From: Bacillota bacterium
GTDB lineage: Bacteria > Bacillota > DTU025
Length of the DNA: 64,000 bases
Direction: 5' to 3'
Assembly: GCA_050951805.1 (NCBI GenBank)
Contig: JBMNJT010000004.1
Span: 106,120-170,119, forward strand
Positions 4,887-47,107 of this stretch are shown in pieces. The notes below the pieces were generated by a model that ran no database searches, was not told where the DNA came from, and saw nothing but the letters and a program-made list of their open reading frames with translations. Made by a program: the position numbers and the translations under genes. Positions within the stretch are counted from its first letter, which is position 1. The number at the start of each line of letters is the position of its first letter.

Positions 4887-5747
4887 ATGATATATCCAAA
4901 TCGCAGATGTGTTGCAGGTGCCACTACTTTGGCTCTGGCTGTTCTGCTTTGTGTGATGATGCCACCTAGCGCCCATGCCTCGGTAAACGTGCTGAGTGGC
5001 CTCACTCAAATGCATGAGGTTGCTCTAGGCGGGGAGTATAGCGGGGTCATAGTACTGGAAAATCTGGGCGATGTGGTCGAGAGGGTGGAGCTTTATCAAA
5101 CAGATTACCGGTTTACTGCAGAAGGCTACACATATTATGAAGAGCCTGGCACTGTTCGACGCTCCAATGCAGCTTGGATTCGCCTGGGACAGTCTGTTGT
5201 AGAGATTCCGCCCAAATGCAGAATTAGCATCCCCTACAGAATCCTGATACCCAACGACACCGGACTCGTCGGCACTTACTGGAGTATGGTGATGGCAGAG
5301 ATGCTGGGCAGTGTAGACGAGGTCGACATTGACGAGCCTTACAAGAAGGACGAGAATGCGATTGTCCTAGGAGTGAAACAGAAGTTTAGATACGGCATCC
5401 AGATAGTAACCAATATCGGCGTTACGGGCAAGAAAAAAGTAGTCTTCAGCAACCCGGCACTCAGACGCATCGAATCTTCCGGCGCCCTTACATTGAGCGT
5501 AGACCTGGCCAACGCTGGCGAACGGTTGGTCAACCCGTCTGTATGGGTTGAGGTATACGACAAGACCGGAACGAAGATAGGACGGCTTGAGGGCAAGAAT
5601 GCCAAGATATACCCTGACACGTCCGTTCGGGCAACGGTCGAGCTCGGCGCGCTCGAGCCCGGAAGCTACAGGGTGATTATAGTGGCCGACAACCATGACG
5701 AGTACGTGGCGGCTGTTCGGTACAGCCTGGAGGTGCCGGTACCTTGA
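4887..5747 (+). CDS. Secreted protein of unknown function (signal peptide; beta-rich)
   Basis: ORF with N-terminal signal peptide (TLALAVLLCVMMPPSAHA). No recognisable catalytic motif. Confidence 0.5.
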   Translation: MIYPNRRCVAGATTLALAVLLCVMMPPSAHASVNVLSGLTQMHEVALGGEYSGVIVLENLGDVVERVELYQTDYRFTAEGYTYYEEPGTVRRSNAAWIRLGQSVVEIPPKCRISIPYRILIPNDTGLVGTYWSMVMAEMLGSVDEVDIDEPYKKDENAIVLGVKQKFRYGIQIVTNIGVTGKKKVVFSNPALRRIESSGALTLSVDLANAGERLVNPSVWVEVYDKTGTKIGRLEGKNAKIYPDTSVRATVELGALEPGSYRVIIVADNHDEYVAAVRYSLEVPVP

Positions 5748-5777
5748 CTCGGTGTGAGGAGAGCCAGCCTACTTCCG

Positions 5778-8420
5778 ATGATTGCTGTTGCACTCTCCGC
5801 CGTCTGCGCTTTTGGGGCATTCGCTGAAGAGTCGGAGCGCGTTGTCGATTCATCCTGTCAACAGATTGATTCAGGCAGATCCGGGCAGTGTTGTTACCAT
5901 TGTGGTGGCGATTGAGAACCACAGTGCGGAGGCGGTAGATGTTGACCTCGGTTCGGAACTGCCTCAGTCGTGGTTTGCGTTCTTCGGAGACGAAACGGTC
6001 AGGCTGGCGCCGGGCGAAACCGAAATTCTGCCCATAGCGGCAATGATTCCCAAGAATGCGCCTGGCCGGAAGCTACGAAGTCCTCGTCCATGCGAGGTAC
6101 ACATGTCCGCGCATGAACGATCGTCAATCCTCAGAAATCCGGTTCACTGTGTTGGTAAACGAAGTCAGGAGTATCAGAGTTACACTTGTCAATGCGCCGG
6201 ATTACGTTGTGGACACTGCTTACACAGCATCATTTCTCCTGAGCAACCATGGCAATGTCGTGGAGGACTTGAAGCTCTCGACCTGCGATATTCAGGGGGC
6301 GTACATCAAACTCGACCCTGCCTGGGTCAGCTTGGAGCCGGGCGGGAGCACTCCGATAGATGTGCATGTAATCTTGACTGCCGCTCCTGGAAGGGTCCTC
6401 GATCATACAGTACTTGTCAAAGCGGGAAACCGGGATTTGCTGTCGAACTGGGCGTCGGCCAGCGCTCGGGTGAAGGTGCTTCCGCAGAAGCTGAGCGATT
6501 CCGATGCCTACCACCATTTCCCCCTCAAGATCCAGCTGAGCGCAGGTGTGCTTGGGACATCTAATCGGGCGCAGCTCAAAGTGGCCGGGGCAGGCCCGCT
6601 TGCTCACGGGGGCAATGACAGACTACGCTTTGATCTATCAGATACGGGAGGGGTTGTCGAATACAGTGCTCCTGGAATGCGTCTGATATTAGGTGACGGC
6701 AGGTTCGGCCTGTCCCCGCTGACCGAATGGCAGGCCAAGGCGCGAGGCATAGGCGTGCAAATCAGTCAGGAAAGGGCGGGACTCGAGCTCTATACTCACG
6801 ATGGCGCTGGCTCTCCTAGGGTGGGGCTTAGGGCTGCCGCGACTTCTAGCAACGGGTCTTCGCTTTCCCTTCAGCTTTTGACACAAGTAGAGCCCGCGAC
6901 GAACATTCTCACAGTAAAAGGTGTGCACAGGATACCTGGCGTCGAAATCGATTGTGAGTATGGAATGCTGGCTAATGGGTCGAGTTCTGGCGCACAAGCG
7001 CTGCGTGCAAGCGGCAGGTCAAAACTTGGCCCGGTTGAGGCAGTTGTGACCGTTCAGAATGCGGATCGTGGCTACACCGCAATAGACAATCCCGGGATTG
7101 ACATGTCGTTGAAACTCAAAAGTCTCTCAAAGCTGCCCGTATCAGGCACCCTTCTGCTGCAAAAGCATGATGATGGGGAATTGCATAGCCGCAAATTGGA
7201 AGCTAATGCCGTATGGAAGTTGGATTCGACTGAACTAGGATTGAAATACTCCGATACGGCGAAATGGGACGACGGTTCGGATGATCTCGGCAGGTCTAGA
7301 CAGGCCTCAGTCTCTCTCAACGTCTTCGATAGCAGCAATGCCTCTCTCAAGGAGGAGATTTCTGTGCAGAACTGCTCCGGCATGTTGGGAAACCCCGGAA
7401 GTTGGACCGTGGCATATGCTCTCAAGAAGCAGTTGACTGAAAGCAGGTGGAAGTGGACCTCCTGCCTGAGTGCGAGTATGCCGTTGAGCCAAGGCGCTTC
7501 GGTACAGTGTTGGCTTGGGTGCAGACGCTTCATATCAAGTTGTGCCCGGGCTGGAGATGAGGGGCGGTTTTCGCGCAGGCACAATGGGGCAGAGCGGCTT
7601 GACTGTGTCTGCAGGAGCGACGTACAAGCCATCTGATTGGGCGGCCCTATCGATCGATGCATCCTGCAAGATAGTGGACGGCGGGGTGCGTGACTTGGGA
7701 GTGAAGGTTGGCCAGACAGCCTTCTTCGATATTCCCCTAGCCCGCCGCTCAGACGTGGGGGAGATATCGGGAAAGGTTGTGGGCGTGGACGGTAAGGGTA
7801 TGCCGGGTATCATAGTGAACGCGGGAGGGTTTTCGACCGTAACGGATTCATCCGGCACTTTCAGATTCCCTGCAGTGGTCGAAGGCGAGCAGTATGTATC
7901 GGTTAGCGTGCGTGAACTGGGCCCCGAGTATCTAGTGATGCCCTCGTCCGCCGTCAGTGTGAAGGTGGAACGGAACACCGAATCCACAGTGCAATTGACT
8001 GTTGCCAGGTCGGGAAGGATCGAAGGTATTGTCAGATTCTCTTCTGACGAGGGAAGCCGTGCAGTGCCTGATGAAATGATATGGCGTATTGCAGATGGTA
8101 TATCGACTCAAAGTGCGCCCAAGCTGCTGTCAGGGCTGCTGGTGGAAGTATCCGGAGCTAGGCGGTACGTGGTTCCGCTTGATTTCGAGGGCCGGTTTGC
8201 TATCGACCATCTCCCCCCAGGGGACTACAGGGTAACTATAGATCGGAGCTCTGTGCCTTCCCTTTACGAGCTGACTCCGTCAGCGATGAACATAACATTG
8301 GGCGAAGGTGAAAAGGCATCGGCTGAATTTGCTATCTACCAGGTACTTCGGGAATATGATTTCACTGAAGGTGGTGAGATTGGACACGAGCTAATAGTAG
8401 AGGGACAGCAAGAAAGGTAG
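5778..8420 (+). pseudogene. Large cell-surface protein (NEW3/CARDB-like repeats, CarboxypepD_reg-like domain) split by at least three frameshifts
   Basis: A signal peptide (MIAVALSAVCAFGAFA) at 5778 is followed by ORFs 5782..6564, 6056..7636 and 7515..8420 in three different frames, overlapping end to end. Repeated V.V.N.G and P.GET motifs are typical of surface adhesin/S-layer repeats. The segment GKVVGVDGKGMPGIIVNAGGFSTVTDSSGTFRF matches a carboxypeptidase-regulatory-like fold. Confidence 0.5.
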
Positions 8421-38954: not shown

Positions 38955-39100
38955 CGCTCATTTTTCCGGCTCGGGAACGGCGGCGGATTCGTCACTGGGC
39001 GGGGAATCGATTGTTGATGGAGGAGAAAGGAGTGGGCTGCCCGAACGCTTATCAGAACTGATGCAGCCTTTCGATTGTATATATTTGATGGGGGACGTGT

Positions 39101-39829
39101 ATGGATCTTCTTGTTGATGCCGACATTCTGGCGTGCCAGTACGCGTACGTGTATGAAGCGAGCCGTGGATGGGACGCGGGCGATGACTTTGATATAGATG
39201 ACGCAGGCTGGGCGATTTCTGGGTTTGATTCGGCGGTTGTTCGGATGATGAACGAGACGGGAACGGAAAATGCGATCCTTTGCTTTACCGGCAGGGATAA
39301 CTTCAGGTACTCGATACTGCCTACATACAAATCGAATCGGCGGGGCAAGCCCAGGCCGGTGCTTCTGGATGTGCTTATTGAACATGCGTGGGATATATGG
39401 AACTGCAAGTCAGTCGATTGCCTTGAGGCGGATGATGTGATGGGGATTATGGCGACTAGGTGGCCTGGGCGCTATGTAGTGGCCAGCACCGACAAGGATT
39501 TGAAGCAGATTCCCGGGCTCCATTACAACTGGAAGAAGGAGAGGGTTGCAGAAGTCGATCAGCGCCGGGCTGATTACTGGTTCTACTTTCAGGTGCTCAC
39601 CGGTGATTCTACAGATGGGTATGCGGGGTGTCCCGGCATTGGCGAATGCAGGGCCAGGCGGGTTTTGGAGGATGCTGCTCCTGACATGTGGGCGCGGGTT
39701 GTGGCCGCCTTCGAGTCCCGGGGGTTGACTGAGGAGGACGCTCTTATTCAGGCAAGGGTAGCCCGAATCCTGCGAGCAGATGACTACGATTTCGAAGAGA
39801 GCCAGCCTATCCTCTGGAGCCCGGCTTGA
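39101..39829 (+). CDS. xni: Standalone 5'-3' exonuclease / flap endonuclease (FEN/PIN-like + H3TH; Xni/ExoIX- or phage-type)
   Basis: Motifs LLVDADILACQYAY, TFRYSILPTYKSNRR, LEADDVMGIMAT, YVVASTDKDLKQIPGL and GDSTDGYAGCPGIGECRARRVLE correspond to the conserved FEN blocks, including H3TH GDxSDNIPGVPGIG. Confidence 0.7.
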   Translation: MDLLVDADILACQYAYVYEASRGWDAGDDFDIDDAGWAISGFDSAVVRMMNETGTENAILCFTGRDNFRYSILPTYKSNRRGKPRPVLLDVLIEHAWDIWNCKSVDCLEADDVMGIMATRWPGRYVVASTDKDLKQIPGLHYNWKKERVAEVDQRRADYWFYFQVLTGDSTDGYAGCPGIGECRARRVLEDAAPDMWARVVAAFESRGLTEEDALIQARVARILRADDYDFEESQPILWSPA

Positions 39830-40135
39830 ATGTGTAATAAGTCTGCTCCCGTCGGTGGCTTCGGTGCCGATCTTAGCAGTGATAAACCACATTGTCTGTA
39901 CCGATTTTCTGCCTTCCCCGCGGCTTTGCTGCAGATATGCATGACGCGGGTTTTGTTTTGCCTTCCGGCGCTTGTCTCTTGCAAGGCGTTGACGGGGATG
40001 GTTTTGATTCTCCTTCAGATGCCTGAGGATGTGCGGCCCAACTTATTTCTAGCTTTGATTGGGAAATACCGGATTCGGCTCACACTCAACTAATGGGGCG
40101 CTCGTCGCGGCCACCTGGGATTGAAAACCCAACCT

Positions 40136-41645
40136 GTCAACCGACTGTGAAAATGTCACCCCTTTTGGGGGTTAATCCGTCTGAGAAAATGTCACCCCCT
40201 GTGGTTGTGTTCCGCTGGCGAGCCCGCGCATTATGCGCAGGCTCGCGGCCGATTGAGATTAGGGTGCCGCCAGCGGGAAACTGTTGTTTTGTCTGTTTTT
40301 GGTCTGGGTTGCCTAGCGTGCTTGTTGAATGCGTTGTTGACGCTCGTAGCTCGCATGTTTCCAGGGATGATCATCCGGGGGCTTCCATGGCATCCTCGGG
40401 GCTTTAGGCTCTTGGGCTGCAGCCGAGGCTGAGTCTTCGATCGCCGGTGTGGAGTTGAACTCGGCTAGGCTGTAGCATTTTCCCTTGTAGAGTGCGTTGA
40501 TTGACCCGTCCATGTGCGTAAGCACGAAAACGGGATCCCTCCTGGCCAATCCGACAACATGGCCGTATGCGTCCAGAAGACGGAACTTGGTGCCATGGTA
40601 GGATATGAGTGATCCTCCCAGCCCTTGACGAGATTCCCTGATCGAAAGAATCATGTCGAGATCCATGTCGGGGGGCGGGTGTCTCATCAGCTGCAGGAAC
40701 GGCAAAGCGGGCGTTGTACCTGGGGATATATCTGAGGAGGAACTCATTTGCCTGTTCGATTGTGTTGATTCCGGCGAGGCGCATTTCAATAGGCAGTCTT
40801 CCCTGAAGCGTCTCCCATGCGCGCTCAATGCGGCCCTTTGCTTGAGGCGAATGCGCTGGTATGTGAGTGATCTGTAGTTCGTCGAGAATGCGGCCTATCT
40901 GGGTAAGGTTGACCCGTTTGCCCTGGAGTTGTTCTTCGATGGTGAGCTTGTCCATCTTGGGCGAGAAAAACATGGTATGGCGGTCAGAATACAAGCACAG
41001 CGGTATGCCGTTGTTCTCAAGCACCTGACGGAACACATGGAGGTATCCTATGATGTCTTCCTGAGGCCTGAAATACAGGCCCAGGATGGCTCCGGTGGCG
41101 TCGTCGATGATCCCATGAAGCGACATAGCTGGGCCTCTTCCTTCGAGCCAGTCGTAGGGACTGGCGTCGCATTGGAGCAAGATGCCCGATTGGGGTTTTC
41201 GCTCTCGCATGCGTCTGTGGCGCGGGGCTCTTTTGGTGGAGCACACTATCCCGGCTTTTTTCAGCAATCGTTGTACAGTGCGTGGACTCACCGAGATCTG
41301 ATAGCCCTCTGCCATGAGCTCGGACATATGGGTGCAATTTGCGTCTTTCAGGTCGGTCTGAGCTAGCTCTATGATGCGTGATGGGTCTAAAGGCTTGCGT
41401 CCGGCATTGCCATGCCCCAGGGCCTGGACCCCGTTACTCTGCATCTCCTTTTTGATCCGTTTGATCTGGCGGACACTTAATCCAAGCATCTTGGCAGCCT
41501 GCGCGTTTGTGATTTGCCCGGCGGCAAGCTGATCCATTACGAAGACCCTCTTCCGTACTTTTTCCGTCAAGATGACGTCCCCCTTGTTCATGGGTGACAT
41601 TATCTCAGACGCGTTATGGGGTGACAATATCACAGACGCGTAACA
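40136..41645 (-). mobile_element. IS element copy A (about 1.5 kb, rve/DDE transposase, IS481/ISNCY-like), transposase frameshifted
   Basis: Imperfect terminal inverted repeats (left ctgtgaaaatgtcacccc...; right ...ggggtgacaatatcacag), each end carrying a second inner copy of the motif. Near-identical to copy B except for a 14-nt deletion that shifts the transposase frame near 40690. Confidence 0.7.
40404..41633 (-). pseudogene. IS transposase, copy A (N-terminal HTH + rve integrase core), C-terminal part out of frame
   Basis: The N-terminal 330 aa are identical to copy B. The C-terminal region continues in another frame (ORF 40313..40828 encodes the expected ...ILSIRESRQ ... tail). Confidence 0.6.
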
Positions 41646-41662
41646 GATTGAAAACCCAACCT

Positions 41663-43240
41663 GTCAACCGACTGTGAAAATGTCACCCCTTTTGGGGGTT
41701 AATCCGTCTGAGAAAATGTCACCCCCTGTGGTTGTGTTCCGCTGGCGAGCCCGCGCATTATGCGCAGGCTCGCGGCCGAGTCAAGGATCGGCCTGCGGCC
41801 TGCTTTGCTCCTTGACTCGGCCTCTGCGCCTGCTCGAGATTAGGGTGCCGCCAGCGGGGAACTGTTGTTTTGTCTGTCTTGGCTCTGGGCTGCTTTGCGT
41901 GCTTGTTGAATGCGTTGTTGGCGCTGGTAGCTTGCACGTTTCCAGGGATGATCGTCCGGGGGCTTCCATGGCATCCTCGGGGGCTTGGACTCTTTAGCTG
42001 CAGTTGAGGCGGAGTCTTCGACCGCCGGTGTGGAGTTGAACTCGGCCAAGCTGTAGCATTTGCCCTTGTAGAGTGCGCTGATTGACCCGTCCATGTGCGT
42101 AAGCACGGAAACGGGATCCTTCCTGGCCAATCCGACAACATGGCCGTACGCGTCCAGAAGACGGAACTTGGTGCCATGGTAGGATATGAGTGATCCTCCC
42201 AGCGCTTGACGAGATTCCCTGATAGAAAGAATGACGTCCAGATTCATCTCTGGGGTCAGAGCACGAAAAGCGGGTGTCTCATCAGCTGCAGGAACGGCAA
42301 AGCGGGCGTTGTACCTGGGGATATATCTGAGGAGGAACTCATTTGCCTGTTCGATTGTGTTGATTCCGGCGAGGCGCATTTCAATAGGCAGTCTTCCCTG
42401 AAGCGTCTCCCATGCGCGCTCAATGCGGCCCTTTGCTTGAGGCGAATGCGCTGGTATGTGAGTGATCTGTAGTTCGTCGAGAATGCGGCCTATCTGGGTA
42501 AGGTTGACCCGTTTGCCCTGGAGTTGTTCTTCGATGGTGAGCTTGTCCATCTTGGGCGAGAAAAACATGGTATGGCGGTCAGAATACAAGCACAGCGGTA
42601 TGCCGTTGTTCTCAAGCACCTGACGGAACACATGGAGGTATCCTATGATGTCTTCCTGAGGCCTGAAATACAGGCCCAGGATGGCTCCGGTGGCGTCGTC
42701 GATGATCCCATGAAGCGACATAGCTGGGCCTCTTCCTTCGAGCCAGTCGTAGGGACTGGCGTCGCATTGGAGCAAGATGCCCGATTGGGGTTTTCGCTCT
42801 CGCATGCGTCTGTGGCGCGGGGCTCTTTTGGTGGAGCACACTATCCCGGCTTTTTTCAGCAATCGTTGTACAGTGCGTGGACTCACCGAGATCTGATAGC
42901 CCTCTGCCATGAGCTCGGACATATGGGTGCAATTTGCGTCTTTCAGGTCGGTCTGAGCTAGCTCTATGATGCGTGATGGGTCTAAAGGCTTGCGTCCGGC
43001 ATTGCCATGCCCCAGGGCCTGGACCCCGTTACTCTGCATCTCCTTTTTGATCCGTTTGATCTGGCGGACACTTAATCCAAGCATCTTGGCAGCCTGCGCG
43101 TTTGTGATTTGCCCGGCGGCAAGCTGATCCATTACGAAGACCCTCTTCCGTACTTTTTCCGTCAAGATGACGTCCCCCTTGTTCATGGGTGACATTATCT
43201 CAGACGCGTTATGGGGTGACAATATCACAGACGCGTAACA
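41663..43240 (-). mobile_element. IS element copy B (intact; contains an extra 48-nt palindromic insertion in the transposase 3' region)
   Basis: Same ends as copy A. The 48-nt insert ccgagtcaagga ... tccttgactcgg lies at about 41776-41830. Confidence 0.7.
41840..43228 (-). CDS. IS transposase, copy B (HTH + rve/DDE integrase core), apparently intact
   Basis: rve core with D..D..E context (LLQCDASPYDW, LYSDRHTMF, HSPQAKGRIERAWETLQ). The start is set by identity to copy A (MILSPHNASEIMSPMNKGDV...). The ORF track extends it artificially upstream to 43576. Confidence 0.75.
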   Translation of the reverse strand: MILSPHNASEIMSPMNKGDVILTEKVRKRVFVMDQLAAGQITNAQAAKMLGLSVRQIKRIKKEMQSNGVQALGHGNAGRKPLDPSRIIELAQTDLKDANCTHMSELMAEGYQISVSPRTVQRLLKKAGIVCSTKRAPRHRRMRERKPQSGILLQCDASPYDWLEGRGPAMSLHGIIDDATGAILGLYFRPQEDIIGYLHVFRQVLENNGIPLCLYSDRHTMFFSPKMDKLTIEEQLQGKRVNLTQIGRILDELQITHIPAHSPQAKGRIERAWETLQGRLPIEMRLAGINTIEQANEFLLRYIPRYNARFAVPAADETPAFRALTPEMNLDVILSIRESRQALGGSLISYHGTKFRLLDAYGHVVGLARKDPVSVLTHMDGSISALYKGKCYSLAEFNSTPAVEDSASTAAKESKPPRMPWKPPDDHPWKRASYQRQQRIQQARKAAQSQDRQNNSSPLAAP

Positions 43241-43289
43241 GATTGAAAACCCAACCTTGACATCCGCTACACGGGGGTATATACTGTCT

Positions 43290-43630
43290 CCAAGTTTAAA
43301 ATCGCAGCTAAACGCAATGACGGGGATGAGTACTCGCACAGTACCGGGCACAGAGAGCCGGCCTCGAGCTGAAAGCCGGAACCGCGGAAATGCGACGAAC
43401 ATGGCCCCTGAGCGGCCGTCCGAACTTCCTCCGCTTTGCTCCTTGATGGGCAGGGAGGGAAAGTAGGCGCGGACGTGTGCGCACGTTAAAGCGCCGGGGT
43501 CTAGCGAATCGGATGGATTCGCCGCACCTGCCGAGGCGCGGTATCGTGAGAACCGCGTGAACCTGGGTGGTACCACGAAGGATTAGTCCTCTCGTCCCAG
43601 GCATTTTGCCTGGGGGAGAGGGCTTTTTGC
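43290..43630 (+). promoter_or_regulatory. Putative T-box riboswitch leader (probably Met-specific) with antiterminator/terminator, upstream of metF-metH
   Basis: A near-consensus T-box sequence GGGTGGTACCACG (43565-43577; consensus AGGGUGGNACCGCG) sits immediately 5' of a strong terminator hairpin (cctctcgtcccagg cattttg cctgggggagagg, 43588-43620) followed by cttttt. Upstream helices (cgtgtgcgcacg, gcgaatcggatggattcgc) could form stems I-III. The specifier codon was not identified. Confidence 0.5.
43588..43628 (+). terminator. Rho-independent terminator of the leader (14-bp stem, T-tract)
   Basis: cctctcgtcccagg / cctgggggagagg followed by gctttttg. Confidence 0.6.
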
Positions 43631-43709
43631 ATTTGCCCTTCTTGGCTTGGGCGGCTAAAGACTTTTCAGCAGAGATAAGTAGAGAAAGCTCGCGCAGGAG
43701 GGAGTTTTT

Positions 43710-44645
43710 ATGGCAAGATTATTGAACAGGTTGAGGCAGGGCAGCTTTGCGGTTACGGTGGAGGTTAACCCCCCGAAAGGTGCGGATGTTTCCAAGACGC
43801 TTGCGCTGGTTCGCCGGTTTTCTGACCGGGTGGACGCCGTGAATGTGGCGGACTGCCCTATGGCAAATGTGAGGATGAGCCCTATTACCTTAGCCCACCT
43901 TATCCAGCGCGATGTAGGGGTAGAGGCCATTTTCCACCTTACGTGCCGTGATCGCAACACCATAGGGCTTCAGGCGGAGCTTTTGGGTGCCTCCGGGCTC
44001 GGAGTCAGGAACATACTGGCCCTCAGGGGCGATCCGCCGTCGAGGGGGGATCATCCGGAGGCCCATGGAGTGTTCGAGGTAGATGCTGTTGGGCTAATCA
44101 GCTTGGCCGCCGCGCTCAACTCGGGACACACGGTAGGCGGCGGCGAGCTGGGTGAAGGGACCGATTTCGCCATCGGTTGCGTAGCAAATCCCAACGCCGA
44201 AGATCTTGAGGCCGAGATATCGAGGCTGGAGGAGAAGATCGCAGCTGGAGCGCACTTCGTCCAGACCCAGCCCATTTTCGACGTCCGCGCCTATGAAAGG
44301 TGGGCTAATGCCATAGACGGGCGGGTGAGCATCCCTATCCTCTACGGGATACTCCCTATCAAAGATGCTGCCTTTGCTGTGCACCTAAAGGAGAATGTTC
44401 CTGGCATGGCGGTGCCCGACTGGGTTATCGACCGGATGCGCTCCGGGGGAGACGGTGAAGGGTACAGGCTGGCTGCGGAGTTGCTATCGGAGATAGGGAA
44501 GGATATCGCCGGGATACACATCTTCCCCATGAACAGTTCCAAGCGGGTTGTAGGCGTGCTGGACGCCTTGGCCGAGGAGGGGTTTGCGGTGCCCCCGGTA
44601 CAAACGGCATGCGACGGCCTGCGGAAGGTGGCTCCGAACGGATGA
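43710..44645 (+). CDS. metF: 5,10-methylenetetrahydrofolate reductase
   Basis: MTHFR (TIM-barrel) family motifs: FAVTVEVNPPKG, VNVADCPMANVRMSP, LTCRDRN, LALRGDPP. Confidence 0.8.
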   Translation: MARLLNRLRQGSFAVTVEVNPPKGADVSKTLALVRRFSDRVDAVNVADCPMANVRMSPITLAHLIQRDVGVEAIFHLTCRDRNTIGLQAELLGASGLGVRNILALRGDPPSRGDHPEAHGVFEVDAVGLISLAAALNSGHTVGGGELGEGTDFAIGCVANPNAEDLEAEISRLEEKIAAGAHFVQTQPIFDVRAYERWANAIDGRVSIPILYGILPIKDAAFAVHLKENVPGMAVPDWVIDRMRSGGDGEGYRLAAELLSEIGKDIAGIHIFPMNSSKRVVGVLDALAEEGFAVPPVQTACDGLRKVAPNG

Positions 44646-47107
44646 GTGTGCGTGTGGAGGATCTGATCCGTGGGGACGAGGTGTTCGTGTTTGACGGGGC
44701 ATTTGGGACGATGCTTCAGGCGCGCGGTCTGCCTCCCGGAGCCTGTCCTGAAGTGTGGTGCCTAAAGTGCCCGGAAGAAGTGGAGCGGGTTCACCGCCAG
44801 TATATTGATGCCGGCGCGCAGGTGATCGAGACTTGCACTTTCGGGGGCACAGCTTTGCGGCTCGGACATTTCGGGCTAGCTCATGCGGCGCGGGAGATCA
44901 ACCTGGCTGCCGTCGAGATTGCCCGGAGGGCTGCTGCCGACCGCGGAACGCTTGTGGCGGCTTCCATGGGCCCCCTGGGGGCATTGGTGGAGCCTTTGGG
45001 CGAAGTCAGTTTCGATGAAGCCTATCTGCAATTTGCGGAGCAGGCGGAGGCGTTTGCCCTGGCGCGACCGGACCTTATCATCATCGAGACCATTGCCGAT
45101 CTCAACGAGATGCGCGCAGCGCTCCTCGCGTGCCGCGATCGTGCGCCAGACATCCCGGTAATCGCCCAGATGACATTCGATTCCACAGGCCGAACCTTCA
45201 CCGGCACTCCGCCGGAGTCGGCCGCGCTCGTCATGGAGTCGATGGGGGCGTCTGTCGTGGGCGTCAACTGCTCTGTCGGCCCGGACCTGCTCGCAGATGT
45301 TGTAGCTCGGATGGGGGCTGTTACATCAAAGCCAATATCGGTCCAGCCCAATGCTGGACTGCCGCATGTGGGCCCATCGGGGCGGGGCGAGTATCCAATG
45401 GGGCCTGAGGAATTCGCGTCCTACGGCCCTAAGCTGGTGTCGGCGGGAGCCTCTATCGTAGGGGGCTGCTGCGGAACTACCCCGGAGCACATCGCAAGGC
45501 TTCGCAGTGCGCTGGAGGGGCTCCGGCCGATCGTGCGAAGGCGCGAGCCTGAGCTTGGTATAACTTCCCGGACTCAGCCTCTGTTTTTCGCCGATGCGGA
45601 GCTGCCCGCGATTGTGGGCGAGAGGATTAACCCAACTGGCAGGCGCAAACTTGCCCAAGACATTGTCGACGGCAGCTTCGAGCTAGTTCGGAAGGAAGCG
45701 GTTGCTCAGGCTAAGGCGGGAGCGCAAGCTCTCGATGTGAATGTGGGCACGCCTCTTGCGAACGAGCCGTGGGCGATGTATGAAGCAGTGAAGGCGATTG
45801 AGGCGACCACTCGTCTGCCGCTCTGCCTCGACTCTTCATCTGCCGAGGCTCTCGAAGCAGGGCTTCGGGCTTATGCAGGCCGAGCCTTGGTCAACTCCTT
45901 CTCGCTGGAGCGTGGCAGGGAAGAGGACGTGCTGAGGCTTGCAGCCAGATACGGCGCGGCGGTGATAGGCTTGCCTATCGACGAGAACGGGATTCCGGCG
46001 ACGGCAGAGGACCGGCTGAGACTGGCTGAGCGGCTCGTCTCGAGCGCACAATCTCATGGAATCCCCCAAAATGCGGTGATCATCGACGCTTTGGCGATGC
46101 CTTGCGGGGCAAAGCAGGAACAGGCTGTGGAGACTCTCAAGGCCATAGAGATGATCCGCAAAGAGCTGGGCTGCAAGACTTCTCTGGGGATTTCCAATGT
46201 ATCGTTCGGGCTTCCGAGCAAGCCCGTGTTGAACACTGCATTCTTGATGCTGGCCATCGCTGCCGGGTTAGACATGGCTATAGCTAACCCCCTTGATGAG
46301 GCGATGATGGCTCAGGTGCGGGCGGCAAGGGTCCTTCTCGGGCGGGATGTTAATGCGGAAAGATACATCTTGTGGGCGGGCGCGGCGTCGCCTGCACCTC
46401 ATGGCGTTGCTGCCGATCCAGGCGGGAAGAAGAAGTTGACCTTGATCTATGATGCGGTCCTCGGGGGCGACAAGGACCTCGCCGTAAGGTTTGTGGAGGA
46501 GGCGGTTTCGGAGGGAGAGGATCCGTCTTCTATCCTAAACGACGCGCTCATCCCGGCTATAGAAGAGACCGGACGGCGCTTCGCCTCAGGCGCTTACTTC
46601 CTCCCTGAACTGATGCTGTCGGCAGGGGCCATGCAGGCTGCAACTGAAGTTATCAGGTCCAGGGTAGGCAGCGCAGAGGATGCGCCGGCATCCCGAGGAA
46701 CTGTGGTGATTGCCACAGTCGAAGGGGATATCCACGACATAGGCAAGAACATCGTCTCCATGTTCCTCGAAAGCAACGGCTACAACGTAGTAGACCTGGG
46801 AAAGAACGTTAAGGCCAGGGATGTTCTGGCAGGGGCCAAGAAGGCAGGGGCCGACGTGGTCTGCCTGAGCGCGCTGATGACAACGACGGCTCCGAAGATG
46901 CGCGAGTCGATAGAGCTTTTTTCAAGCGAGGGGTACGATTGCCCAATCATCATTGGAGGCGCAGCTACATCACGGGAGTACGCCATACGCATAGGAGCGG
47001 ACGGATACGGCAGTGATGCCGTGGAAGCGGTCTTCGAGGTAGAAAGGCTTTTGGCAAGAAAGCGTGCTTTTGGGCGGCAAAGCGATCAAGTGGGAGGGAA
47101 AGAGTAG
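44642..47107 (+). CDS. metH: Cobalamin-dependent methionine synthase, short form lacking the C-terminal reactivation domain (Hcy S-methyltransferase + pterin-binding + B12 cap + B12-binding)
   Basis: Hcy-binding domain (VFDGAFGTMLQ ... GGCCGTTPEHI), pterin domain (IVGERINPTGRRK ...), B12-binding DxHxxG-like (VEGDIHDIGKNIV). ATG 44642 overlaps the metF stop (ATGA). 821 aa. Confidence 0.85.
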   Translation: MSVRVEDLIRGDEVFVFDGAFGTMLQARGLPPGACPEVWCLKCPEEVERVHRQYIDAGAQVIETCTFGGTALRLGHFGLAHAAREINLAAVEIARRAAADRGTLVAASMGPLGALVEPLGEVSFDEAYLQFAEQAEAFALARPDLIIIETIADLNEMRAALLACRDRAPDIPVIAQMTFDSTGRTFTGTPPESAALVMESMGASVVGVNCSVGPDLLADVVARMGAVTSKPISVQPNAGLPHVGPSGRGEYPMGPEEFASYGPKLVSAGASIVGGCCGTTPEHIARLRSALEGLRPIVRRREPELGITSRTQPLFFADAELPAIVGERINPTGRRKLAQDIVDGSFELVRKEAVAQAKAGAQALDVNVGTPLANEPWAMYEAVKAIEATTRLPLCLDSSSAEALEAGLRAYAGRALVNSFSLERGREEDVLRLAARYGAAVIGLPIDENGIPATAEDRLRLAERLVSSAQSHGIPQNAVIIDALAMPCGAKQEQAVETLKAIEMIRKELGCKTSLGISNVSFGLPSKPVLNTAFLMLAIAAGLDMAIANPLDEAMMAQVRAARVLLGRDVNAERYILWAGAASPAPHGVAADPGGKKKLTLIYDAVLGGDKDLAVRFVEEAVSEGEDPSSILNDALIPAIEETGRRFASGAYFLPELMLSAGAMQAATEVIRSRVGSAEDAPASRGTVVIATVEGDIHDIGKNIVSMFLESNGYNVVDLGKNVKARDVLAGAKKAGADVVCLSALMTTTAPKMRESIELFSSEGYDCPIIIGGAATSREYAIRIGADGYGSDAVEAVFEVERLLARKRAFGRQSDQVGGKE

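Follow-up and report, generated by a model that had tools for sequence, protein, structure and literature searches.

Why two copies of one insertion sequence (IS) should stand head to tail in front of a met operon leader, with three identical copies of a short repeat around and between them, is the question raised by a 64,000-nucleotide stretch of DNA from a Bacillota bacterium (contig JBMNJT010000004.1 of assembly GCA_050951805.1, positions 106,120–170,119 of the forward strand; hereafter the window). The answer that we consider likely is that this IS, which is of the ISTde1 type, targets promoters, that the promoter of the met T-box leader was its target, and that a second targeted insertion at the same place made the tandem. 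The location of the IS is explained by the promoter-targeting rule set out below, and its doubling is probably explained by the same rule.

The met locus and its empty counterparts

An earlier note, written from the letters of the window, had described a 17-mer in three identical copies that flank and separate a head-to-tail pair of one rve-type IS, placed immediately upstream of a met T-box leader. The layout is as described: the 17-mer (GATTGAAAACCCAACCT) is found exactly three times in the window, starting at 40119, 41646 and 43241 (expectation in a shuffled window, 0.01 matches), both IS encode integrase-type (rve, RNase H fold) transposases on the minus strand, and the pair is followed by the T-box (43308–43602) and then by the genes for methylenetetrahydrofolate reductase (MTHFR) and B12-dependent methionine synthase. 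The true target-site duplication is 16 bp in length (GATTGAAAACCCAACC); with its 17th base (T) both the IS (TGT...) and the −35 hexamer begin. The right inverted repeat (IRR) denotes here the IS end far from the transposase start, and the left inverted repeat (IRL) the end beside it. The limits given for copy A (40135–41645) and copy B (41662–43240) assume that the element starts with TGT at both ends; TGT is indeed found at the start of both IS ends, and the IRR end of metagenome contig L001 reads TGTCAACC despite a different flank. The features of the locus are as follows.

40119–40134, target-site duplication copy 1, GATTGAAAACCCAACC, 16 bp, present once in the empty sites of contigs L002 and L007
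40135–41645, minus strand, IS copy A, 1511 bp, degenerate; IRR 40135–40162, IRL 41618–41645
40313–41591, minus strand, transposase pseudogene of copy A, with open reading frames (ORFs) 40404–41633 and 40313–40828 in different frames
41646–41661, target-site duplication copy 2 (repeat match), the spacer of the IRL(A)–16 bp–IRR(B) junction
41662–43240, minus strand, IS copy B, 1579 bp, intact; IRR 41662–41689, IRL 43213–43240
41780–41833, hairpin-forming non-coding segment of 54 nt, 3′ of the transposase stop codon, missing in copy A
41840–43186, minus strand, transposase gene of copy B, 448 aa, matching NF033594
43194–43222, minus strand, promoter-like site for the transposase inside the IRL, TTGTCA-17-TG-GATAAT
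43241–43256, target-site duplication copy 3 (repeat match)
43257–43285, plus strand, host sigma-70-type promoter of the met leader, TTGACA-17-TATACT (promoter scan, 11/12)
43308–43602, plus strand, T-box leader (RF00230, 85.5 bits, E 4.2e-19)
43710–44645, plus strand, MTHFR, first gene of the met operon (PF02219, E 2.8e-42)

Metagenome contigs of the met site were gathered by exact match to the downstream MTHFR protein, which is present in many metagenomes. A search for empty sites in related genomes had been recommended in the earlier note, and two such contigs with the same flanks as the window were found: L002 and L007 have the same left flank (3′ of a 5′–3′ exonuclease gene), then one 16-mer, then TTGACATCC. 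The met site is occupied in contigs L003–L006, and the insertion is thus polymorphic in natural populations. As the 16-mer is present only once in the empty sites, the repeat is a target duplication and not a part of the IS terminus, which was one of three origins that had been offered for it. Another, a site-specific target, comes closest of the three; the site is indeed specific, but the specificity lies in the adjacent promoter and not in the 17-mer, since the duplicated 16-mers differ at every other site. With one copy of the 17-mer in the empty site and different 16-mers elsewhere, the idea that the 17-mer itself is the recognition sequence or the IS terminus was rejected as next to impossible.

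It had also been thought that the insertion could supply or disrupt the promoter of the leader. A promoter scan placed the met promoter, TTGACA-17-TATACT, at 43257–43285 with 11 of 12 consensus matches, so that the order reading downstream is the IS end (43240), the start of the −35 (43257), the end of the −10 (43285) and the start of the T-box model (43308). The promoter starts right after the duplication, and the empty allele has the same promoter with the same 16 bp ahead of it; the promoter therefore neither comes from the IS nor is destroyed by it.

Insertion upstream of promoters

Seven independent IRL-side flanks of this IS were collected, from a scan of metagenome contigs for the IRL tip (12 loci) together with the window, L103 and L105. 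All seven run in the same order: ACA, 16–17 nt, a −35-like TTGnnn, a spacer of 17–18 nt and a TATAAT-like −10, with the promoter pointing away from the IS. The sites, with the sequence next to the IRL, are listed here.

Window (met site): 16 nt beside the IRL GATTGAAAACCCAACC, −35 TTGACA, −10 TATACT
L013: TCGGCTCCCCTCCCGC, −35 TTGACC, −10 TATAAT
L014: CGCAAATGCCTCATATA, −35 TTGACA, −10 TATAAT
L022, upstream of a tRNA gene: AAGTGATTTTGCCCCC, −35 TTGCAT, −10 TATAAT
L018: GGAAATCTATGGCGTG, −35 TTGCCT, −10 TATAAT
L103: GCTAGGCGGAAACGAC, −35 TTGACA, −10 TATAAT
L105, beyond a small derivative element: TACAGTTTCCAACTCA, −35 TTGTCA, −10 TATAAT

The 16-mers of the seven sites are mutually unrelated, and the promoter is the constant feature. 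As read from the compared sequences, this IS and its relatives are inserted in one orientation, with the IRL one duplication length (16–18 bp) upstream of a sigma-70-type −35 hexamer. The relatives come from a genome scan that yielded 80 loci (33–54% protein identity) in Bacillota, Chloroflexota, Acidobacteriota, Dormibacterota, Nitrospirota, deltaproteobacteria and other groups; their ends were located at 28 loci by a joint search for duplications and inverted repeats and at 33 more by an IRL position weight matrix (61 in total). A strict promoter rule, that of the promoter scan, was applied (at least 4/6 matches per hexamer and at least 9/12 overall, A2 and T6 in the −10, and a spacer of 16–18 nt). 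Promoters that pass it and have a −35 starting 16–18 nt from the IS end are present at 37 of 67 sites, against a background of 0.31% at random positions in the same sequences (p ~1e-74). The distances peak sharply at 16 nt (14 sites) and 17 nt (19 sites), with 4 sites at 18 nt and no other distance seen at more than two, and in 29 of 31 sites the duplication is just as long as the gap to the −35 box. When the two sides are compared, the strict promoter is found at the IRL in 17/28 cases and at the IRR in 1/28, and flanks aligned on TTG (n = 50) give a TTGACA-17-TATAAT logo. With the IRL so placed, one cut coincides with the upstream border of the −35 box, and the DNA that becomes duplicated is what directly precedes the box. 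A further test, which looked for co-directional ORFs behind the predicted promoters, did not discriminate (23 versus 21 of 28) and was dropped.

Both published surveys of the IS1202 family, to which the element is assigned below, report no target preference in the groups with long duplications (PMC10132070; bioRxiv 10.1101/2022.12.17.520857). A full-text literature search, which left most subscription journals outside its coverage, returned no report of promoter targeting for IS1202, ISTde1 or ISNCY elements, and the rule appears to be new for the family.

Several further contigs that carry this IS have unusual flanks. In L001 and L011 the left flank of the L018 site is joined to the met promoter, in L103 the left flank of the L022 site is joined to a new promoter, and in L104 the sequence that follows the IRL is the left flank of the L022 site in inverted orientation, an arrangement that cannot result from simple recombination between IS copies; these four mixed-flank contigs are either IS-mediated rearrangements or assembly chimeras. 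L105 (reverse complement, 5400–5940) contains a derivative of ~470 bp with IRR-like and IRL-like ends and without a transposase gene. It lies 18 nt from an IS copy that is 99.9% identical to copy B, with duplications that do not match, and 16 nt upstream of TTGTCA-17-TATAAT and a leader that resembles a cobalamin riboswitch. In L012, L016 and L021 the IRL tip is followed by 7–8 variable nt and then by the common sequence GAGCCATTTTTGATGTAACGG, the variable part in L012 being GATTGAA, the start of the met 16-mer. Only a remnant of the IRL end (~230 bp, 85% identical) is found in L012, L014, L020 and L021.

The element and its transposase

The transposase of copy B matches the NCBIfam model NF033594 (ISNCY_2) with 381.6 bits against a cutoff of 250; the second-best model, IS481, gives 72 bits and is below its cutoff of 224. 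Members of the IS1202 family have been defined by a DDE transposase with a DD pair between the first two Ds and Q, rather than K or R, at position E+7 (PMC10132070; bioRxiv 10.1101/2022.12.17.520857), and this signature is present as D142, D163-D164, D203, E256 and Q263 (E+7), all invariant in the transposase alignment. The format is likewise that of the family, with a length of 1511 or 1579 bp, one ORF and imperfect inverted repeats (family range 1.3–1.75 kb, repeats of 22–29 bp). Each IS end has two CTGWGAWAWTGTCACCC repeats, whose eight matches in the window all lie inside copies A and B. Read from the tip inward, the IRR is TGTCAACCGACTGTGAAAATGTCACCCC and the IRL TGTTACGCGTCTGTGATATTGTCACCCC, alike at 21 of 28 positions, which makes them imperfect 28-bp inverted repeats.

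The family has been split by length of the duplication into groups of 5–6, 15–17 and 27–28 bp (PMC10132070; bioRxiv 10.1101/2022.12.17.520857). The ISTde1 subgroup has duplications of 15–17 bp and TGT at both ends, and is found in Firmicutes and many other phyla (bioRxiv 10.1101/2022.12.17.520857); one of its members, ISHahy13, is 1497 bp long with a 17-bp duplication and a transposase of 447 aa (PMC10132070). On these characters the element is classed as an IS1202-family IS of ISTde1 type, an ordinary member with a normal long duplication. The earlier note had considered a 17-bp duplication unusually long, whereas 16–17 bp is the published norm of this subgroup (PMC10132070 Table 7; bioRxiv 10.1101/2022.12.17.520857), and duplications of this type were also found at L022 (16 bp) and in 28 relatives (16–18 bp).

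Pfam models HTH_29, HTH_28 and HTH_23 match the transposase, together with a weak match to rve_3. An AlphaFold model (mean pLDDT 75.5) has two helix-turn-helix domains, an RNase H core, a beta-barrel and a C-terminal helix, and its top Foldseek matches are ShCAST TnsB, IstA and MuA. In a profile search of PDB sequences TnsB was found with an E-value of 2.7e-4, a weak likeness at the sequence level that is confined to the TnsB N-terminal domain. Residues 400–448 (window 41840–41986) form a variable, disordered C-terminal tail in which P409, P414 and W415 (KPxxDHPW) are invariant; the KPxxDHPW residues are kept across relatives of ~50% identity, and the tail is a candidate docking peptide for a host protein.

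Two features of the transposase gene may be added. Between the helix-turn-helix domains two stretches of 3 aa, KHA and IAA (two 9-nt stretches), are missing in both window copies and in L011, the gaps mapping to window positions 42960–43010 and 41365–41415, but are carried by four close homologues; they are present in P0001, P0003, P0006, L001 and L022. As the shortened form is found at several sites, it is probably active. The promoter-like site for the transposase, TTGTCA-17-TG-GATAAT (43222–43194), is made from the two terminal repeat motifs of the IRL and overlaps both; it stands back to back with the met promoter, and the identical sequence is present in copy A (41599–41627). The predicted transcription start is approximately at the ATG (43186). 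This arrangement hints at an mRNA without a leader, and at a transposase that represses its own gene by binding to the IS end.

How the promoter is recognised

A promoter could be found by the transposase either through a bound host protein or through the DNA itself. We lean, with modest confidence, towards the former, namely that the promoter is read via a bound RNA polymerase holoenzyme or sigma subunit and not by the −35 sequence alone. A good −10 box is found at 17 of 23 TTGAC sites, compared with 13% of background TTGAC pentamers, and among sites that lack TTG an in-register −10 with at least 5/6 matches is present in 6/17, compared with 2.1% of the background (p 8e-7). Where the −35 box is weak, the −10 box is of consensus type, as is the case in real promoters.

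The alternative is that the transposase recognises the −35 hexamer directly, as a mimic of its own binding motif or end, with RNA polymerase uninvolved. Such a reading is made plausible by the likeness of the −35 to the IRR tip and to the inner repeat, which tells against the involvement of a host protein: 14 of 29 elements have as their IRR tip TGTCAA (the commonest tip), which is TTGACA in reverse complement, and a near-invariant inner TGTCA motif is found in both ends, the −35 sharing TGACA with the inner end repeat. The cut is also registered on the −35 and not on the −10, given that the length of the duplication equals the distance to the −35 and that this distance is only weakly correlated with spacer length (r = −0.22). 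Against direct reading, the enrichment of the −10 box is strong and extends to sites that have no TTG, and it is the sites with a weak −35 that carry a consensus −10. TnsB, MuA and IstA usually choose their targets through a partner protein that is contacted by their C-terminal tail; the present transposase is of this fold class and has a conserved HPW motif in its tail. Finally, for the sister ISAba32 subgroup it was concluded that Xer sites are not recognised by sequence alone (bioRxiv 10.1101/2022.12.17.520857). Taken together we regard direct reading as unlikely. A variant, in which the target mimics the junction of an IS circle, was rejected; the −35 hexamer is oriented opposite to a real IRR and the geometry differs.

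Recognition through a promoter-bound host protein can be stated in a more specific form, which we put forward tentatively as possible and short of probable. ISTde1-type transposases would be recruited by the promoter-bound holoenzyme (sigma region 4 or the alpha C-terminal domain) via the disordered HPW tail, and the IS1202 family as a whole would dock on a DNA-bound host protein, be it XerC or sigma/polymerase, with cut distances that step by about one helical turn (5–6, 16–17 and 27–28 bp). Recruitment by the HPW tail would mirror the tail-to-partner selection of targets by TnsB, MuA and IstA. The published duplication classes of 5–6, 16–17 and 27–28 bp are indeed about one helical turn apart, and the two cuts would keep to one face of the helix with respect to the recognised site. 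If true, this would be a natural single-protein, promoter-guided system for DNA insertion that arose independently of TnGBS.

Origin of the tandem

The 14-nt frameshifting deletion that the earlier note saw in copy A is real (near 40674/40675) and splits the transposase ORF across frames; a nonsense codon also stands shortly ahead of the normal C-terminus of the transposase, and the frameshift product (P0010) is NCBI protein MGI6540787.1. The in-frame palindromic insert of 48 nt reported for copy B proved to be something else. The segment is 54 nt in length (41780–41833) and non-coding, as it lies downstream of the transposase stop codon (41842–41840), and since it is also found in L001, L011 and L022 the difference is a deletion from copy A and not an insertion into copy B. 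All 38 substitutions between the copies fall within ~500 nt on the IRR side, whilst ~990 nt on the IRL side and 135 nt at the IRR tip are identical. The IRR-side 600 nt of copy A are similar to a variant found at another promoter (L017/L022), and the 14-nt deletion is common to copy A and L017, likewise at another promoter; copies at other sites (L011, L104 and L105) are 99.3–99.9% identical to copy B. The clustering of the substitutions and the likeness to this variant argue that the pair is not a fresh duplication that drifted and that no history can do without at least one gene-conversion event. By this comparison copies A and B are mosaics, copy A a pseudogene and copy B intact.

A second targeted insertion would account for the pair in a few steps. 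The first insertion would restore the 16 bp and the promoter beside the IRL, leaving the promoter a valid target. A second insertion, possibly of a copy-out product of the resident element, would cut at the same two positions and duplicate the 16 bp again, to give repeat–IS–repeat–IS–repeat. At least one gene-conversion event would then have made the copies mosaic, and copy A would have gained its inactivating lesions. Because the promoter is intact after insertion it can be hit again, which is the simplest account of the triplicated repeat. Arrays of ISKpn21 (ISAba32 subgroup) at dif, with up to four copies and an identical 5 bp between one copy and the next, have been read as re-targeting. 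The lack of an AAA+ partner gene of the TnsC, MuB or IstB type would fit an absence of target immunity.

Several points weigh against promoter targeting followed by re-insertion. About 45% of the relatives' sites fail the strict promoter rule, many of them in Chloroflexota or Acidobacteriota; promoters there may differ, or targeting may be looser. Selection against intragenic insertions could inflate the promoter signal, but the exact spacing is not thereby explained. Re-targeting predicts that the newcomer is promoter-proximal, yet the A-type variant is distal, and this misfit in the order of arrival calls for an extra gene-conversion step whichever copy came first. The tandem junction was seen in no other sample: the IRL-tip scan of metagenome contigs (12 loci) gave no IRR within 80 nt of an IRL. 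Exact-protein look-ups with P0010, with the junction-spanning ORFs of 578 aa and 104 aa and with a start variant of 451 aa returned no record, and so no second tandem sample.

Junctions of the form IRR–16/18 nt–IRL do recur, in L032, L064 and L105. Those in L032 (3095–3206) and L064 (2800–2941), both from short-read assembled genomes, break off before one full k-mer length of the second copy has been reached, and their spacer differs from the duplication on the other side. Stopping within one k-mer, they could equally be circle junctions; they look like read-through of such junctions, which would indicate copy-out-paste-in transposition with a spacer of duplication length. L061 was also considered as a tandem and rejected, as it has only a short IRL-like fragment beside a small palindromic element.

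The pair could alternatively stem from duplication of one resident copy, by unequal exchange between the 16-bp repeats, by slippage or as an IS dimer, with the left copy later converted in part from a diverged copy elsewhere in the genome. That the copies do not differ in 135 nt at the tip of the IRR or in ~990 nt towards the IRL is consistent with this, as is the fact that a single B-type copy is the common state of the met site in other samples (L011, L104 and L003–L006), and IS21, IS30 and IS911 are classic cases of tandem dimers whose spacer is as long as the duplication. Yet 16 bp of homology is poor for recombination and as many events are needed as for re-targeting, which itself follows from the targeting rule and matches the published reading of the ISKpn21 arrays; we therefore hold duplication to be rather improbable. 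The last explanation, that the tandem is an assembly artefact in which one IS present in two strain variants (A-like and B-like) was expanded when reads of an excised circle with the same 16 bp closed a loop in the assembly graph that was walked once, draws on the source being a metagenome-assembled genome, on the frequency of mismatched-flank contigs for this IS (L001, L011, L103, L104 and L105), on the L032 and L064 junctions that break off within one k-mer length and on the circles with a duplication-length spacer reported for ISKpn21, but it is very unlikely given that the contig spans both full copies and three identical repeats with outer flanks exactly those of the empty site, that reads from circles are as a rule so rare that graph pruning removes them, and that the junction k-mers must exist in real reads either way.

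The T-box leader

The leader of the met operon is a full-model match to RF00230 with a score of 85.5 bits (E 4.2e-19), below the gathering score of 93, and the GGGUGGUACCACG motif is present; an Rfam search of 39000–45000 at the gathering threshold accordingly returned nothing, the T-box being seen with an E-value threshold only. The specifier loop (43397–43404) reads GAA-C-AUG-G, in which AUG (43401–43403) fits the met genes; CAU, one base upstream, is an alternative register.

Comparison with known systems

The closest known elements are those of the ISTde1 subgroup (ISHahy13, ISTde1 and ISCARN63), with which this IS shares its size, a single transposase of ~450 aa, TGT tips, imperfect inverted repeats of 24–28 bp, duplications of 15–17 bp, the DD(DD)E-Q signature and occurrence in Firmicutes among many phyla. 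It differs from the subgroup as published in that no target preference and no tandem arrays have been described there, whereas here the target is precise and lies upstream of promoters. The long-duplication branch of the IS1202 family would thereby gain a target, where two surveys from 2022–2023 found none.

Tandem dimers with an active head-to-tail IRR–IRL junction and a spacer of duplication length are known from IS21, IS30 and IS911, and the IRL(A)–16 bp–IRR(B) junction of the window (41618–41689) is alike in form. These belong to different IS families, and unlike them the window has no convincing junction promoter: a strong promoter across the tandem spacer was rejected, as the minus strand reads TTGACA-16 nt-TGTTAC with a −10 of only 3/6 matches and the resident promoter lies inside the IRL.

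The ISAba32/ISAjo2 subgroup (ISKpn21 and ISAjo2) offers a parallel in targeting. In the ISAba32 subgroup the IRL always adjoins the XerC arm of a Xer site, with a 5-bp duplication filling the gap (bioRxiv 10.1101/2022.12.17.520857). In both cases the IRL faces a protein-bound site, the duplication fills the gap and one duplication is common to the copies of a tandem array; the subgroup also has circles whose spacer is as long as the duplication. The target there is a XerC/XerD site with a duplication of 5–6 bp, in contrast to a −35 box and 16–18 bp here.

Targeting of this kind would explain why such elements are tolerated, as insertion re-creates an intact promoter together with the DNA immediately ahead of it, and also why they form tandem arrays, as the target is still there after insertion and there is no sign of target immunity. 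In genomes of uncultured bacteria a likely promoter would be marked by the flank of an IS of this type, and the transposase is a candidate for a single-protein tool that puts DNA beside promoters.

Oriented insertion upstream of promoters is also known from TnGBS, ISLre2 and ISKra4, which insert 15–17 bp upstream of sigma-A −35 boxes by means of Mutator-like transposases, and for which contact with the transcription initiation complex has been proposed (PMC3942029). The insertion seen for this IS is alike in being oriented and upstream of a promoter. Those elements are nevertheless Mutator-like (p-MULT 3/4), whereas the present transposase is of the ISNCY/IS1202 type with a TnsB/MuA/IstA-like fold; belonging to a different transposase superfamily, this IS is not a member of their group, and by comparison with them its duplication spans the whole 16-bp gap to the −35. 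Targeting ~16 bp upstream of the −35 would thus have arisen at least twice, in unrelated transposase superfamilies, a pattern that points to a common constraint in the structure of the polymerase–promoter complex at its upstream edge.

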